A stretch of DNA of 12,705 bases, taken from a virus (Duplodnaviria > Heunggongvirae > Uroviricota > Caudoviricetes). The translations under genes were made by a program, and so were the position numbers. Positions 7,404 to 12,705 of the stretch are shown here, one piece after another. Every line of letters begins with the position of its first letter. The stretch's first letter is position 1. Below the pieces are notes generated by a model that was given only the letters and a program-made list of their open reading frames with translations, was not told the origin of the DNA and made no database searches. The stretch lies in the IMG/VR virus record IMGVR_UViG_2778261165_000008; one strand, 5' to 3'.

Positions 7404-7428
7404 GGGCGCCAGAAATGGCGCCTTTTTT
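7404..7428 (+). terminator. Rho-independent terminator downstream of J
   Basis: Palindromic GGCGCC stem (7405..7410 and 7417..7422) with loop AGAAAT, followed by TTTTTT at 7423..7428, 19 nt after the J stop. Confidence 0.6.
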
Positions 7429-7452: not shown

Positions 7453-8052
7453 ATGCGTAAAGTTTGTGCAGCCATTTTGTCCGCAGCCATCTGTCTGGCC
7501 GTATCCGGTGCGCCTGCATGGGCGTCTGAGCAGCAGGCCACACTGAGCGCAGGGTATCTTCATGCCCGTACGAACGCTCCCGGCAGCGAAAATCTGAACG
7601 GGATTAACGTGAAATACCGTTATGAGTTTACGGACACGCTGGGGCTGATTACGTCATTCAGTTATGCCAACGCTGAAGATGAGCAAAAAACGCATTACAG
7701 CGATACCCGCTGGCATGAGGATTCCGTGCGTAATCGCTGGTTCAGCGTGATGGCGGGGCCGTCTGTGCGCGTGAATGAATGGTTCAGCGCGTATGCGATG
7801 GCGGGTATGGCTTACAGCCGTGTGTCGACTTTCTCCGGGGATTATATCCGCGTAACTGACAACAAGGGGAAAACGCACGATGTGCTGACCGGAAGTGATG
7901 ACGGTCGCCACAGCAACACGTCTCTGGCGTGGGGAGCTGGCGTGCAGTTTAACCCGACCGAATCCGTGGCCGTTGACGTCGCTTATGAAGGCTCCGGCAG
8001 CGGTGACTGGCGTACCAACAGTTTCATCGTTGGTGTCGGTTATAAATTCTGA
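7453..8052 (+). CDS. lom: Lom/Ail/PagC/OmpX-family outer membrane beta-barrel protein (lambda Lom-like moron)
   Basis: 199 aa with an N-terminal signal peptide (MRKVCAAILSAAICLAVSGAPAWA then SEQ). The body has alternating aromatic/hydrophobic beta-strand patterns and ends in a C-terminal Phe (GVGYKF), typical of outer-membrane barrels. It sits between J and stf as in lambda. A GAGAGG Shine-Dalgarno lies 5 nt upstream. Confidence 0.9.
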   Translation: MRKVCAAILSAAICLAVSGAPAWASEQQATLSAGYLHARTNAPGSENLNGINVKYRYEFTDTLGLITSFSYANAEDEQKTHYSDTRWHEDSVRNRWFSVMAGPSVRVNEWFSAYAMAGMAYSRVSTFSGDYIRVTDNKGKTHDVLTGSDDGRHSNTSLAWGAGVQFNPTESVAVDVAYEGSGSGDWRTNSFIVGVGYKF

Positions 8053-8078
8053 TTAGCCAGGTAACACAGTGTTATGAC

Positions 8079-8106
8079 AGCCCGCCGGTTCAGGCGGGCT
8101 TTTTTG
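8079..8106 (+). terminator. Rho-independent terminator downstream of lom
   Basis: Stem AGCCCGCC (8079..8086) pairing with GGCGGGCT (8093..8100), loop GGTTCA, followed by TTTTT at 8101..8105. Confidence 0.65.
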
Positions 8107-8116
8107 TGGGGGGAAT

Positions 8117-11100
8117 ATGGCAGTACGGATTTCAGGTGTACTGAAAGATGGCGCAGGTAAGCCGATACAAAACTGCACCATTCAGCTAAAGGCCAGGCGC
8201 AACAGCACCACGGTGGTGGTGAACACAGTGGCCTCAGAAAACCCGGATGAAGCCGGGCGTTACACAATGGACGTCGAGTATGGTCAGTACAGCGTCAGTC
8301 TGTTGGTGGAGGGATTCCCGCCGTCACACGCCGGGATTATCACCGTATATGAGGACTCAAAGCCGGGCACACTGAATGATTTCCTCGGTGCAATGACGGA
8401 GGATGATGTCCGGCCAGAGGCACTGCGCCGTTTTGAACTGATGGTGGAAGAGGTGGCGCGTAACGCGTCCGCAGTGGCACAGAACACGGCAGCCGCGAAG
8501 AAGTCAGCCAGTGATGCCAGCACATCTGCCCGTGAGGCGGCAACCCATGCGACTGATGCTGCAGGCTCAGCACGCGCAGCCAGCACGTCAGCCGGACAGG
8601 CCGCGTCGTCGGCTCAGTCAGCGTCTTCCAGCGCAGGAACGGCATCAGCAAAGGCCACTGAAGCATCAAAAAGTGCTGCCGCTGCAGAGTCCTCAAAAAG
8701 CGCGGCGGCCACCAGTGCCGCTGCGGCAAAAACGTCAGAAACGAATGCGGCAGCGTCACAACAATCAGCAGCCACTTCAGCATCCACCGCGACCACGAAA
8801 GCGTCAGAAGCTGCCACCTCAGCCCGGGATGCGTCGGCTTCAAAAGAGGCGGCAAAATCATCAGAAACGAGCGCAGCCTCGAGCGCCAGCAGCGCAGCTT
8901 CCTCGGCAACGGCGACAGCAAATTCTGCGAAGGCGGCAAAAACGTCCGAGACGAACGCCAAGGCTTCTGAAACGGCAGCGGGACAGAGTGCCTCAGCTGC
9001 GGCAGGCTCAAAAACAGCGGCTGCGTCGTCTGCCAGTGCCGCGTCAACAAGTGCCGGGCAGGCCTCAGCCAGTGCCACCGCCGCCGGAAAATCGGCAGAA
9101 AGTGCTGCATCGTCCGCTTCAACAGCCACAACGAAGGCTGGCGAAGCCGCTGTACAGGCCAGCGCAGCAGCGAGGTCTGCTTCCGCAGCGAAGACATCCG
9201 AAACGAATGCGAAAGCGTCGGAAACCCGTGCAGAATCCTCAAAAACGGCAGCCGCATCGTCCGCCAGTTCGGCAGCGTCATCGGCATCATCTGCGTCTGC
9301 TTCAAAAGATGAGGCGACCAGACAGGCGTCAGCAGCGAAGGGCAGCGCCACGACGGCATCCACGAAAGCAACAGAGGCGGCAGGCAGTGCGACGGCAGCA
9401 TCTCAGAGCAAAACTGCTGCTGAATCCGCTGCGACCCGTGCGGAAGCTGCTGCTGATCGTGCTGAAGAGATTGCCGGTGCAGTTGCGATGGAAGACGCAA
9501 GCCTTACAACTAAAGGTGTTGTGAAACTTAGCAGTGCTGTTGATAGCACCAGTGAATCGCTGGCCGCAACGCCAAAAGCAGTTAAAGCAGCCAATGACAA
9601 TGCGAATAGCAGGGTGCCATCTAACCGAAAAGTTAACGGAAAAGCACTGACTGCGGATATAACATTAACGCCGAAAGATATTGGTACTTTAAATTCAGTA
9701 ACGATGTCTTTCTCTGGCGGGGCTGGGTGGTTCAAACTGGCTACGGTTACCATGCCACAAGCGAGTTCCATCGTTTACATCGCATTGATTGGTGGCGCTG
9801 GTTACAACGTCGGTTCCCCACATCAGGCAGGCATTTCAGAACTGGTTCTACGAGCAGGCAATGGAAACCCCAAAGGAATTACCGGGGCTTTGTGGAAGCG
9901 TACAGCCGTCGGATTAACGAATTTCGCCTGGATCAACACATCCGGCGATACATATGATATTTACGTTGAGATTGGCAATTATGCGACTCGTGTAAATATC
10001 CATTGGGATTGTACTGCAAATGCGACAGTTTCTATTTATACATCGCCAACATATTCAGCGAGTAAGCCTTCCAGCGTTACCGATGGTGTTGTTTATACGA
10101 TGTATAGCACACATCAGAAACCGACGCCGTTAGATATTGGAGCACTGCCAACAACCGGAGGAACAGTTTCAGGTCCGTTGTCTGTTACAGGTGGATTAAC
10201 TGGTTCATTGAATGGTAATGCAAGTACAGCCACGAAATTGCAGACGGCAAGATCTATCGGTGGAGTTGTTTTCGACGGTTCTGCAAATATTAACCTTCCA
10301 GGTGTAAACACTACGGGTAATCAGAACACCACTGGTAATGCTGCAACTGCTACAAAACTTCAGACTGCAAGAAAAATATCCGGTGTTCCATTTGATGGTT
10401 CTACTGATATCACTTTAACCGCCGCGCATGTGGCTGCTTTTGCCAGAAGAGCAACGGATGCGTATGCCGATGCGGATGGGGGCGTTCCATGGAATGCCGA
10501 ATCAGGCGCTTACAATGTCACCCGCTCTGGCGACAGCTATATTCTGGTTAACTTCTATACCGGAGTCGGAAGTTGCCGGACCTTGCAGATGAAGGCGCAT
10601 TACAGAAATGGTGGTCTGTTCTACCGTTCTTCAAGAGACGGTTATGGTTTTGAAAGTGGTTGGGCGCAGCTTTACACCTCGGCTCATCCTCCTGCAGAGT
10701 TTTATCCAGTCGGTGCACCAATCCCGTGGCCATCAGATACCGTTCCGTCTGGTTATGCCCTGATGCAGGGGCAGACTTTTGACAAATCTGCCTACCCAAA
10801 ACTTGCAGCCGCTTATCCGTCAGGCGTGATCCCTGATATGCGTGGCTGGACGATTAAGGGCAAACCTGCCAGTGGTCGAGCCGTATTATCTCAGGAACAG
10901 GACGGCATTAAATCGCACACCCACAGCGCCAGCGCATCCAGTACGGATTTGGGGACGAAAAACACATCGTCGTTTGATTACGGCACTAAATCCACGAATA
11001 ACACCGGGGCGCATACCCATAGTGTTAGCGGTACGGCTGCTTCAGCCGGTGCACATACCCATTCGATGACATTTGTTTCAGGTGGTTCCAGTGGTGCTCC

Positions 11101-11344
11101 GGGAAGTGGAGCATCTGATTATTCTAAATACAGTGTTAACACTTCTTCTGCAGGCGCTCATACGCACTCTGTATCGGGTACTGCTGCAAGCGCAGGTGCA
11201 CACGCACATACTGTGGGTATTGGTGCTCATACGCACTCGGTTGCGATTGGCTCACATGGACACACCATCACCGTTAACGCTGCTGGTAACGCGGAAAACA
11301 CCGTCAAAAACATCGCATTTAACTATATTGTGAGGCTTGCATAA
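8117..11344 (+). CDS. stf: Side tail fibre protein (lambda Stf family), mosaic
   Basis: 1075 aa. The N-terminus [38 protein letters not shown] and the C-terminus from GAPIPWPSD to [11 protein letters not shown] match lambda Stf as I recall it. Between them are an Ala/Ser/Thr-rich repeat block, a divergent AT-richer domain and His-rich HxH repeats. The stop overlaps the tfa start (TAATG). Confidence 0.93.
8465..9480 (+). repeat. Ala/Ser/Thr-rich low-complexity coding repeats inside stf, with recurring [13 protein letters not shown]-type units
   Basis: Three similar DNA units lie near 8717..8760, 8933..8975 and 9187..9228. The biased composition produces long stop-free alternate frames on both strands (ORF-track entries 8340..9500, 8511..9524 and 8614..9363). 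Confidence 0.8.
10205..10415 (+). repeat. Two copies of a phage tail-fibre repeat motif (G-N-A[20 protein letters not shown]) inside stf
   Basis: [28 protein letters not shown] and [28 protein letters not shown] are encoded about 120 nt apart, with synonymous divergence at the DNA level. Confidence 0.75.
10911..11270 (+). repeat. His-rich HxH repeat region in the Stf C-terminal domain
   Basis: Repeated [24 protein letters not shown] and SHGHT motifs, including duplicated [17 protein letters not shown] units. Similar HxH motifs are known from distal tail fibre tips, for example in T4 gp37. Confidence 0.7.
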
Positions 11345-11919
11345 TGGTATTCAGAATGAGTGAACAACCACGGACCATAACAATTTATAATCTGCTGGCC
11401 GGAACTAATGAATTTATTGGTGAAGGTGATGCATATATTCCGCCTCATACAGGTCTGCCAGCAAACAGTACCGATATTGCACCGCCAGATATTCCGGCAG
11501 GCTTCGTGGCTGTTTTCAACAGTGATGAGGCATCGTGGCATCTCGTTGAAGATCATCGGGGTAAAACGGTTTATGACGTGGCTTCCGGCGACGCGTTATT
11601 TATTTCTGAACTCGGTCCGTTACCGGAAAATGTTACCTGGTTATCGCCGGAAGGGGAGTTTCAGAAGTGGAACGGCACAGCCTGGGTGAAGGATACGGAA
11701 GCAGAAAAACTGTTCCGGATCCGGGAGGCGGAAGAAACAAAAAACAACCTGATGCAGGTAGCCAGTGAGCATATTGCGCCGCTTCAGGATGCTGCAGATC
11801 TGGAAATTGCAACGGAGGAAGAAATCTCGTTGCTGGAAGCATGGAAAAAGTATCGGGTATTGCTGAACCGTGTTGATACGTCAACTTCACAGGATATTGA
11901 ATGGCCAGCACTGCCGTAG
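11344..11919 (+). CDS. tfa: Tail fibre assembly protein (Tfa family, TfaR/TfaQ-like)
   Basis: 191 aa, with [50 protein letters not shown] near the N-terminus. It closely resembles the E. coli K-12 Rac/Qin Tfa proteins as I recall them and is translationally coupled to stf. Confidence 0.9.
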
Positions 11920-12016
11920 GGTAAAACATATAAATTCTATAATTAGATGTATCTTTCCATTTACGGCAAGGAAGGGGGCTTGGAAGACGTAAAGCATCTC
12001 ACACCGAGATTATTTT

Positions 12017-12520
12017 TTATATGTCAGGTGTCTGAAGTTTTGCTTTGGCTCTTAAAATGGTTTGCCGCGAGGTTTTGAATTCCCGGGCAATGGCACTTAT
12101 ACTTACACCTGACTTAATTCGTTCGAATACCACCTGTTTCTGTTCTTCATTTAACACAGGTGGTCGACCAAAACGTTTCCCTGCGCCGCGGGCTCTTACT
12201 ATCCCGGAATGAGTGCGTTCAAGTAAAAGGTCTCGTTCAAATTCAGCGACTGCTGAAATTACTTGCATCATCATTTTTCCTGTTGGACTGGTCAGGTCAA
12301 TGCCCCCCAATGCTAAGCAATGCACTCTGATACCTGTTTCGGTCAGTTGTTCCACTGTTTTCCTGATATCCATTGCATTACAACCAAGGCGATCCAGTTT
12401 TGTCACAATCAATTGATCACCACATTTCAGGCGAGCAAGCAACCGGTTAAAACCAGGACGCTCACTGGTTGCTGCTGAGCCCTGAGAGATCCCCTCATAA
12501 TTTCCCCAAAGCGTAACCAT
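12017..12520 (-). pseudogene. pin: Site-specific DNA invertase (serine recombinase, Pin/Hin/Gin family), N-terminally truncated and lacking the catalytic Ser segment
   Basis: The 167-aa minus-strand ORF contains [36 protein letters not shown] and a C-terminal helix-turn-helix, all serine recombinase hallmarks. About 25 to 35 N-terminal residues, including the G-Y-x-R-V-S-T catalytic motif, are absent, and the first residues (MVTLWGNY) do not fit the family. The in-frame sequence upstream carries a stop. Confidence 0.8.
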
Positions 12521-12705
12521 GTGTGAATAAATTTTGAGCTAGTAGGGTTGCAGCCACGAGTAAGTCTTCCCTTGTTATTGTGTAGCCAGAATGCCGCAAA
12601 ACTTCCATGCCTAAGCGAACTGTTGAGAGTACGTTTCGATTTCTGACTGTGTTAGCCTGGAAGTGCTTGTCCCAACCTTGTTTCTGAGCATGAACGCCCG
12701 CAAGC
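12490..12705 (-). other. Unassigned stop-free frame running in from the window's 3' edge on the minus strand (C-terminal fragment of an unknown protein, or non-coding junction DNA)
   Basis: A minus-strand frame is open for about 70 codons (…[37 protein letters not shown], then stop) and ends about 30 nt inside the truncated pin ORF in a different frame. I could not assign a family. Confidence 0.2.

Follow-up and report, generated by a model that had tools for sequence, protein, structure and literature searches.

The DNA analysed here, a stretch of 12,705 nucleotides referred to as the window, carries a tape-measure fragment and the genes M, L, K, I, J, lom, stf and tfaR as intact open reading frames with full-length domain matches. 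The gene order J-lom-stf-tfaR-pinR, adjoining uspF/ompN, is like that of Rac in E. coli K-12, with stf between lom and tfaR, and Pfam matches for J, Ail/Lom and Caudo_TAP also place stf after J and lom and before an overlapping tfa chaperone gene. The stf gene is a single open reading frame of 1075 aa plus stop on the + strand, and its coordinates coincide with those of a RefSeq CDS (WP_072007630.1, "prophage tail fiber N-terminal domain-containing protein"). Annotated copies that are 100% identical were found in E. coli SLK172 and 12 others among the complete genomes listed, frameshifts being absent from the identical copies, and across 30 genomes among the matches listed the gene is conserved at 96.8-100%. 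A search of the product against NCBIfam gave no match. The gene is unremarkable and had been annotated before: it codes for the side tail fibre of a lambda-like E. coli prophage of the Rac type and, as is known for fibre genes of this sort, is put together from exchangeable modules. A strong terminator-like hairpin lies 17 nt upstream of its start codon, so that late-operon antitermination is presumably required for expression. The features of the locus are the following:

8117-11344, + strand: stf, side tail fibre gene, Rac-type StfR allele (open reading frame; identical annotated CDS)
8117-8398, + strand: N-terminal anchor (aa 1-94), a collar on the tail in lambda (PF08400; PDB 9E7M/9MGH)
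8411-9481, + strand: shaft of 51 heptads (aa 99-455) in A-x-x-S-A-x-x register (lag-7 periodicity; heptad table; relatives)
9500-9622, + strand: PF03406 "phage tail fibre repeat" motif (aa 462-502; Pfam E = 1.9e-19; Mu S match, PDB 5YVQ/8JU3)
9668-10120, + strand: knob (aa 518-668), predicted nine-strand beta-sandwich, jelly-roll-like (predicted structure, pLDDT 69.6)
10214-10297, + strand: tail-fibre repeat, copy 1 (aa 700-727; likeness to copy 2)
10334-10417, + strand: tail-fibre repeat, copy 2 (aa 740-767; likeness to copy 1; K-12 StfR homology resumes here)
10430-10696, + strand: gp37_C/Mu-S-like globular domain (aa 772-860; PF12604, E = 1.4e-5; Mu S, PDB 8JU3, a stretch at E = 2.4e-19)
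10700-11341, + strand: collar plus needle (aa 862-1075), T4 gp37 tip homologue (PDB 2XGF, E = 5.9e-87; PF07484; six PF03335 stretches)
11063-11158, + strand: hypervariable tip head cassette (aa 983-1014), presumed receptor contact, lying between the third and fourth HxH motifs (homology-block map; T4 tip alignment)
11344-11919, + strand: tfaR, tail fibre assembly chaperone (PF02413, E = 2.2e-42; annotation; its ATG overlaps the stf stop, TAATG)
12017-12607, - strand: pinR, serine invertase/recombinase gene (annotation)

Anchor and heptad shaft

Seven segments were resolved in the stf product, namely the anchor, the 51 heptads, the PF03406 motif, the knob, the two 28-aa repeats, the Mu-S/gp37_C-like domain and the collar with the needle. 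A preliminary description of this DNA had counted at least four modules; the modular make-up holds, while the number is revised to seven recognisable segments. The anchor had rightly been called lambda-like: PF08400 extends over aa 1-134 (Pfam, E = 2.4e-71), a PDB sequence search matches aa 1-94 to the lambda Stf N-terminus (9E7M/9MGH, E = 5e-49) and amino acid identity to lambda is 88%. It is present at 80% nucleotide identity or more in 82/82 related loci. The collar-type N-terminal domain, the gene position with an overlapping tfa and the long Ala/Ser heptad shaft are those of a lambda-type Stf (PF08400 family).

The block that follows had been described as low-complexity, Ala/Ser/Thr-rich, about 1 kb long and composed of imperfect tandem units. 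Its composition and size are as described, with an Ala+Ser+Thr fraction of 0.70-0.80 in 50-aa windows over aa 151-450 and a length, flanks included, of ~1.05 kb (nt ~8411-9481), and it is the low-complexity label that has to be replaced, since the block is a perfectly phased heptad array. Protein identity at lag 7 is 0.435 (z = 11.2 against 500 shuffles), every multiple of 7 stands at z = 7.5-9.4, and the heptad table gives Ala at position a in 46/48, Ser at d in 37/48 and Ala at e in 34/48, with zero register breaks and a period of 7 unbroken over ~350 aa. The tandem units are therefore present in the protein and not as a 21-nt array in the DNA: Tandem Repeats Finder run on stf returned only two trivial 12-nt rows, direct repeats in the block are only 60-88% identical, DNA identity is ~45% at any multiple of 21 nt, the heptads being too degenerate at this level, and no higher-order repeat was found in the heptad DNA.

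We infer that the shaft is a trimeric alpha-helical coiled coil. It has the heptad periodicity without register breaks of a canonical coiled coil but not the large hydrophobic Leu/Ile/Val at a and d, and because its core is one of small residues, Ala at a and Ser at d, it is described as working like a coiled coil and is not classed as a canonical one. The lambda counterpart, with 36 heptads, has been modelled as a proximal coiled coil which fits the rod seen by cryo-ET (PMC12617516), a model based on AlphaFold3 plus cryo-ET and not on an atomic map. The two blocks are homologous (63-70% identity), and the earlier view of the block as a module separate from lambda is abandoned.

Shaft length varies among the related loci. 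In 80 related viral loci, all from IMG/VR, the shaft comprises from 7 to 66 heptads (counts of 7, 19, 21, 33, 35, 36, 37, 51 and 66), and the register is kept wherever both flanking motifs were found, with a spacing from EEVAR to KG[IV]VxLSS of 131, 243, 250, 257, 355 or 460 aa, always 5 mod 7. One relative (L018) possesses a recent 315-nt duplication whose copies are identical at 310/315 positions and whose junction falls on a short stretch of shared sequence. This variation in repeat number is in accordance with the proposal that the repeats are substrates for length change. A homologue search with aa 1-505 was of no use in this respect, as the 120 matches listed were all 89-98% identical and mostly labelled partial.

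Sliding-window GC content is 0.61-0.63 over 8400-9450, 0.44-0.49 over 9450-10650 and 0.51-0.54 beyond 10650. Split by codon position, the shaft has a GC2 of 0.80 and a GC3 of 0.50, the anchor a GC3 of 0.62 and the central part a GC3 of 0.28-0.40. The high GC of the shaft is thus a consequence of its Ala/Ser/Thr codons and not of its origin, and high GC was rejected as a sign of foreign origin because the excess is at codon position 2 and GC3 is below that of the anchor. The central domain, said to be AT-richer, is indeed the only part AT-rich at synonymous sites; the drop in GC3 begins at ~aa 421-480, ahead of the break in homology at nt ~9570-9630.

Central region and recombination junctions

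Similarity of aa 505-862 to the reconstructed Ur-lambda Stf is undetectable (best E = 1.9), which agrees with the description of a central domain unlike lambda. Two tail-fibre motifs had been assigned to this non-lambda centre. The two 28-aa direct repeats, with a pattern ending ..G..FDGS and 21/28 aa and 53/84 nt in common, do belong there, while the first motif, PF03406 (aa 462-502), is common to lambda. The knob is jelly-roll-like with moderate confidence, and its predicted fold appears to match a domain found in tailspike-like proteins. A PDB sequence search with aa 500-775 gave only a chance match (E = 0.33); a first AF2 model of the same residues was poor (pLDDT 55.7), Foldseek against PDB found nothing at E<=0.001, and the model was discarded.

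Homology breakpoints with the 82 related loci are clustered in six places, at conserved motifs. A major recombination junction lies at the 3' end of the PF03406 motif, where 40 homology blocks end (nt 9570-9629) and where K-12 StfR and most relatives cease to be homologous; 13 blocks begin in 10320-10349, K-12 StfR and others restarting at 10334. Module identities vary independently, as in one relative (L004) that is 99-100% identical up to the Mu-S-like domain and 81% identical in the tip. Module boundaries are thus recombination junctions, as expected from the domain shuffling proposed earlier, and recombination of lambda with Rac within stf/tfa has been demonstrated by experiment (PMC3945230).

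Of the closest known systems, one is found in the same chromosomal context (lom-stf-tfaR-pinR-...-uspF-ompN) in K-12, where Rac StfR (b1372, 1120 aa) is 91% identical in the anchor, 93% in the 51-heptad shaft, 91% in the Mu-S-like domain and 86% in the needle. K-12 Rac has two DNA blocks in common with the window, 7863-9603 (90%) and 10334-12481 (93%). In the interval from ~9603 to ~10334 K-12 carries a longer central segment that is unrelated, has a single KLQT repeat and lacks the knob, whereas the allele described here has the jelly-roll knob and two repeats, and also a different tip head between HxH motifs 3 and 4. Ur-lambda Stf (774 aa; PDB 9E7M/9MGH; PMC12617516) has in common the collar-forming N-terminus (88%), the Ala/Ser heptad shaft, PF03406, the collar plus HxH needle (67%) and an overlapping tfa, but it has 36 heptads against 51 and a hinge/distal segment unrelated to aa 505-862.

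Other parts are shared with phages of different types. Mu S (PDB 5YVQ, 8JU3) contains the PF03406 motif and the gp37_C-like domain, and a Punavirus (P1-like) S-homologue fibre matches aa 459-1075 at 52%; Mu and P1 S are, however, myovirus baseplate fibres with another N-terminal attachment domain, and their tips are switched by inversion, which was not found here. Escherichia phage Cyrano, a ~110-kb phage-plasmid, has a fibre in which the central module (aa 458-854) is 84% identical, and five E. coli plasmids of 105-115 kb among the matches listed carry DNA 95.6-98.6% identical to that of the knob. The Cyrano gene differs in its product, a fibre of 1341 aa with the annotation P1 S homologue, and in adjoining a J-type protein.

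Collar, needle and tip head

The C-terminus had been described as lambda-like, with HxH repeats of the T4 gp37 kind, and both statements are supported. Identity to lambda orf-314 is 67%, and aa 862-1075 align end to end with the T4 gp37 tip (PDB 2XGF), with the collar, seven HxH motifs and the C-terminal sequence conserved; the domain is homologous to the iron-binding needle, from which metal binding is predicted. The motifs start at aa 934, 966, 980, 1015, 1029, 1038 and 1047, hold all 14 His of the C-terminal 215 aa, and 7/7 align to iron-site positions of T4 gp37, while among 10,000 shuffles of the segment the number of motifs averaged 0.84 and never exceeded 6. T4 gp37 is otherwise unrelated to the stf product, its tip head loop is not conserved here, and its chaperones are gp38/gp57A as opposed to the lambda-type Tfa (PF02413).

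It is known that T4 gp37 holds seven iron atoms and that residues after its third HxH bind LPS and OmpC (PMC6957217). The tip head of the stf product aligns to these residues and differs from the T4, lambda and K-12 StfR heads. It matches at 80% or more in only 7/82 related loci, compared with 28-35 on either side, and 26 homology blocks end at 11010-11069 and 21 begin at 11130-11159. The tip head is a swapped cassette, presumed to make the receptor contact. The architecture of the lambda fibre and its binding of OmpC have been described (PMC12617516); since the tip head differs from that of lambda, OmpC binding by the fibre encoded here is not to be assumed.

Discussion

From these results the stf gene is very probably a lambda-like, Rac-site fibre gene coding for a modular, trimeric, metal-stapled mosaic fibre, a reading built on homology to Ur-lambda Stf, T4 gp37 and Mu S. 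A homotrimer would be expected, of which the N-terminal ~94 aa would dock on the tail above the tip and the 51 Ala/Ser-cored heptads would make up the shaft, a slender alpha-helical coiled coil some 50 nm long. The distal part would consist of the PF03406 motif, the jelly-roll knob, the two beta repeats and the Mu-S-like domain, and the chain would end in the collar and a six-stranded needle with seven metal ions, each held by HxH motifs of three chains. A small variable head at the end of the needle would contact the outer-membrane receptor, the receptors of the lambda and T4 homologues being OmpC and LPS, and the overlapping tfaR probably provides the folding chaperone. Unequal exchange between heptads would change shaft length in whole heptads, and homologous recombination at short conserved motifs (AKTSETN-type heptads, the PF03406 end, the KLQT repeat, the collar start and the GAHTHS boxes) would swap cassettes among lambdoid prophages, ~110-kb phage-plasmids and P1-, Mu- and T4-like phages.

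The Ala/Ser/Thr block could instead be a low-complexity linker lacking ordered structure, or GC-rich foreign DNA acquired on its own, and its 70-80% of Ala+Ser+Thr, a GC of 0.62 against 0.45-0.55 on both sides, the lack of a DNA tandem array by Tandem Repeats Finder and the small Ala/Ser at a and d, atypical of a coiled-coil core, would all suit such a reading. We consider it very improbable, because the period of 7 is unbroken for ~350 aa (z = 11.2) with Ala at a in 46/48 heptads, all six flanking-motif spacings are equal modulo 7 in shafts of 7-66 heptads, the GC excess is at codon position 2 (0.80, with GC3 at 0.50) and the lambda homologue of the block fits the cryo-ET rod (PMC12617516). 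It is also quite improbable that stf is a decaying remnant of a cryptic prophage without a functional fibre. Rac in K-12 is a cryptic prophage, being defective, with lomR broken by IS5 and most tail genes absent, and many database copies of the stf product are labelled partial, but these proteins come mostly from short contigs, so assembly breaks are probably the cause. In the window all genes from the tape-measure fragment to tfaR are intact, the conservation of stf in the 30 genomes among the matches listed includes identical copies without frameshifts, and the seven HxH motifs and the heptad register are undisturbed.

That PinR switches the fibre tip by inverting DNA, in the manner of the G segment of Mu, the C segment of P1 and the P segment of e14, is scarcely credible here even though pinR lies just downstream on the opposite strand and invertases have been proposed to drive stf exchange (PMC3945230). 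The gap between tfaR and pinR is only 98 nt and holds no alternative stf' or tfa' segment, the only inverted repeats are a 23-nt pair (74%) and a 16-nt pair (88%), both weak, and a gix/hix-like AAACCNNGGTTT core was not found with one mismatch allowed. An invertible tail-fibre segment of the Gin/Cin/Pin type was accordingly rejected: the invertase gene is adjacent, but crossover sites and alternative segments were not found.

Returning to the modular trimeric fibre, one could speculate further that heptad number is a selected, quantised "reach" tuned to O-antigen or capsule thickness, and that the knob is a second, glycan-binding site which makes the fibre bispecific. We regard this as unlikely. 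If true, the knob would bind surface polysaccharide and the HxH tip a porin or the LPS core, and reach would be tuned through unequal recombination to the O-antigen or capsule layer of the host.

In lambda-like phages the side tail fibres determine how fast the phage adsorbs and, in part, which hosts it infects, and they are used as interchangeable components of engineered phages and of delivery particles. The PF03406 end, the second KLQT repeat, the collar start and the boxes flanking the tip head may serve as natural in-register splice points for chimeras, with the whole-heptad rule for shaft length as an extra constraint on their design. The mosaicism of tail fibres, the iron needle with its HxH motifs and recombination between lambda and Rac in stf have all been published previously, so this case is correct but ordinary, and its biological yield is a tidy example added to a well-documented phenomenon, nothing more.

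Identity and surroundings of the stf gene

The side tail fibre gene of this lambda-like, Rac-type E. coli prophage is a single ORF:

8117-11344 (+), stf, 1075 aa

Its product is 100% identical to WP_072007630.1 ("prophage tail fiber N-terminal domain-containing protein"), and an identical annotated CDS is present in E. coli SLK172 and 12 other complete genomes among the matches listed; at least 80% of the stf length was found in 369 of 5426 complete genomes. The exact gene is annotated in RefSeq, and the feature is already known. The gene order tape measure, M, L, K, I, J, lom, stf, tfaR, pinR, followed in SLK172 by ydfK, ynaM, uspF and ompN, is that of the K-12 Rac prophage, therefore stf is an allele of stfR. 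The tail genes are intact in the window locus and no decay is visible in stf, so we rejected a decayed gene. The stf stop and the start of the chaperone gene tfaR overlap (TAATG, 11341-11346), which suggests that fibre and chaperone are translationally coupled.

Strong terminator-like hairpins with T runs (7404-7423 and 8079-8100, 8 pairs each) flank lom, the latter ending 17 nt upstream of the stf start codon. This bracketing is compatible with lom as a self-contained insertion, and it implies that stf and tfa depend on late transcription with antitermination. Further upstream, a composition step at ~1650-2100, between the tape-measure end with the next gene (GC 0.41-0.45) and L onwards (0.53-0.65), may mark a further mosaic junction within the tail operon. 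Downstream, the serine recombinase gene pinR (12017-12607, -) adjoins tfaR. An invertible tail-fibre segment was nevertheless rejected: beside pinR the window holds no detectable invertible segment, alternative fibre or chaperone genes or gix-like site, and pinR is apparently an orphan invertase, like that of K-12 Rac.

Anchor and heptad shaft

Every element listed in the preliminary description (lambda-like anchor, Ala/Ser/Thr block, AT-richer centre, repeats, HxH) is present in stf; the observation is confirmed and its interpretation supported, with three corrections. The N-terminal anchor is lambda-like, with PF08400 covering aa 1-134 and lambda Stf in PDB 9E7M matching aa 1-94. Some database copies of the N-terminal part (P0008, P0012 and P0047) are labelled "short-chain fatty acid transporter, partial", evidently an annotation error.

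The Ala/Ser/Thr block had been described as low-complexity sequence with imperfect tandem units, separate from the lambda-like anchor. The composition is there (in windows spanning aa 151-450, 70-80% of residues are Ala, Ser or Thr), but the block is a lambda-like, structured shaft of regular heptads. Tandem Repeats Finder found no array in stf, and direct DNA repeats in the block are short and 60-88% identical, with spacings mostly multiples of 21 nt. In the protein, the autocorrelation of identity has its peak at lag 7 (0.435, z=11.2), with others at every multiple of 7 (z=7.5-9.4) and at no other lag. The 51 heptads run without stutter from aa 99 (RPEALRR) to aa 455 (AEEIAGA), with Ala at position a in 46 of 48, Ser at d in 37 of 48 and Ala at e in 34 of 48; no higher-order repeat was found in the shaft, identity being ~40-45% at any multiple of 7. 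Lambda has a homologous block, 63-70% identical to the window shaft, and a 2025 cryo-EM/cryo-ET study assigns residues 102-393 of Ur-lambda gpStf to a proximal coiled coil (PMC12617516), so the block had already been interpreted in the literature. Since the core is Ala/Ser rather than the classical Leu/Ile, we infer a coiled coil from the periodicity and the lambda model. With the standard coiled-coil rise of ~0.148 nm per residue, the 357 residues would span ~53 nm and lambda's 36 heptads ~37 nm. Long ORFs in other frames or on the other strand of the heptad region (8340-9500 (-), 8614-9363 (-) and 8511-9524 (+); 386, 249 and 337 aa) are probably not genes but a consequence of the stop-free GCN/TCN/ACN repeats; in lambda, a counterpart within stf is annotated as orf206b.

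Length variation among relatives

Repeat-unit number was compared across 80 IMG/VR loci encoding the same anchor. The distance from EEVAR to KG[IV]VxLSS is 131, 243, 250, 257, 355 or 460 aa, always 5 mod 7 wherever both flanking motifs were found. Complete shafts have 7, 19, 21, 33, 35, 36 (lambda), 37, 51 or 66 heptads, the 51-heptad form occurring in 38 sequences including the window and K-12 StfR, and register is kept in the shafts written out heptad by heptad. The 66 heptads of L018 include a 315-nt tandem duplication (15 heptads; copies 310/315 identical) whose junction lies within the short shared sequence CCAGTGCCGCG. This duplication shows directly that unequal exchange has occurred recently and in register, and the internal repeats are, as had been proposed, substrates for length variation.

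PF03406-type motifs number 0-5 and KLQT-type repeats 0-2 in relatives, and HxH motifs usually seven where the needle is present. L008 has five tandem PF03406-type motifs (Stf aa ~366-560) followed by the same knob as the window, therefore this motif can itself amplify. Two loci with the window-type anchor, L060 and L083, have a quite different distal design, in which a 21-heptad Glu-rich shaft gives way to a long, collagen-like Gly-x-y repeat region (GPPGPKGEQGPAGPQGPKGDKGERGD...) at aa ~246-365.

Base composition and the central part

Along stf, GC falls from 0.61-0.63 (8400-9450) to 0.44-0.49 (9450-10650) and is 0.51-0.54 thereafter. We split the segments by codon position.

Base composition of Stf segments
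Anchor, aa 1-112: GC 0.548, GC2 0.41, GC3 0.62
Shaft, aa 113-455: GC 0.619, GC2 0.80, GC3 0.50
PF03406 and linker, aa 456-526: GC 0.446, GC2 0.49, GC3 0.34
Knob, aa 527-695: GC 0.475, GC2 0.55, GC3 0.40
Repeats, aa 696-771: GC 0.434, GC2 0.57, GC3 0.28
Mu-S-like domain, aa 772-860: GC 0.528, GC2 0.56, GC3 0.47
Tip, aa 861-1075: GC 0.516, GC2 0.59, GC3 0.44

High shaft GC is ruled out as a sign of origin because GCN, TCN and ACN codons cause it. At synonymous sites, by contrast, AT-richness of the central part is real (J and lom have a GC3 of 0.66 and 0.61), in keeping with a different source. It carries one PF03406 motif (aa 462-502) and two 28-aa direct repeats (aa 700-727 and 740-767; 21/28 aa common), and aa 505-862 showed no similarity to the reconstructed 774-aa Ur-lambda Stf (best E=1.9).

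The tip

The expected T4 gp37-type tip was borne out. Seven HxH motifs hold 14/14 His of the last 215 aa, against a mean of 0.84 motifs and a maximum of 6 in 10,000 shuffles of these residues; aa 862-1075 match the crystallised T4 gp37 tip over their whole length (2XGF, E=5.9e-87), with 7/7 window motifs in register. The T4 needle coordinates seven iron atoms along its length, and its residues right after the third HxH (~932-959) bind LPS and OmpC (PMC6957217). The equivalent aa 983-1014 are the least conserved part of stf and are bounded by nearly identical GAHTHS-coding boxes, so that this stretch looks like a specificity cassette.

Mosaicism and exchange

Horizontal tail-fibre segment exchange (lambda, T4, P2, Mu, P1), the HxH iron needle, lambda Stf architecture and experimentally observed lambda x Rac recombination within stf/tfa are published (PMC3945230; PMC12617516; PMC6957217). 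Explicit whole-heptad quantisation of shaft length and a fine junction map were not found in a small literature search; proteins of this kind would be expected to show both.

The postulated domain shuffling is evident among the relatives, as identity to the window protein varies independently from module to module. L004 and L023 match it at 96-100% up to the end of the Mu-S-like domain and at 79-81% in the tip; in L008 the anchor is identical, the shaft is shorter, and knob and tip are at 96% and 98%. K-12 StfR is 91-93% identical in anchor and shaft, is without the knob, and has the last two modules at 91% and 86%. In ~20 loci, similarity to the window protein is confined to the anchor and part of the shaft. 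Homology blocks (>=80% identity, >=150 nt) in 82 related loci have their ends clustered at a few places.

Clusters of homology-block ends
8940-8969: within the shaft
9570-9629: directly 3' of PF03406
10320-10349: second KLQT repeat
10650-10709: directly 5' of the collar
11010-11069 and 11130-11159: both sides of the tip head
11880-11939: tfa end

Coverage in these loci is 82/82 for the anchor, ~50 for the distal shaft, 8 for the knob, ~20 for the Mu-S-like domain, 33-37 for collar and needle, only 7 for the tip head and ~31 for the needle C-terminus with tfa.

Knob DNA (9632-10330) was found in 514 of 5426 E. coli genomes, with 173 places on plasmids; on large plasmids it sits in tail fibre genes. 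Five knob-carrying plasmids among the matches listed (e.g. NZ_CP101923.1 and NZ_CP149811.1; 105-115 kb, 95.6-98.6% identity) are presumably phage-plasmids. The fibre of the phage-plasmid Cyrano also carries the knob (84% aa), and a more distant one is present in a P1-like fibre. The high identity on plasmids implies recent exchange between large plasmids and chromosomal lambdoid prophages.
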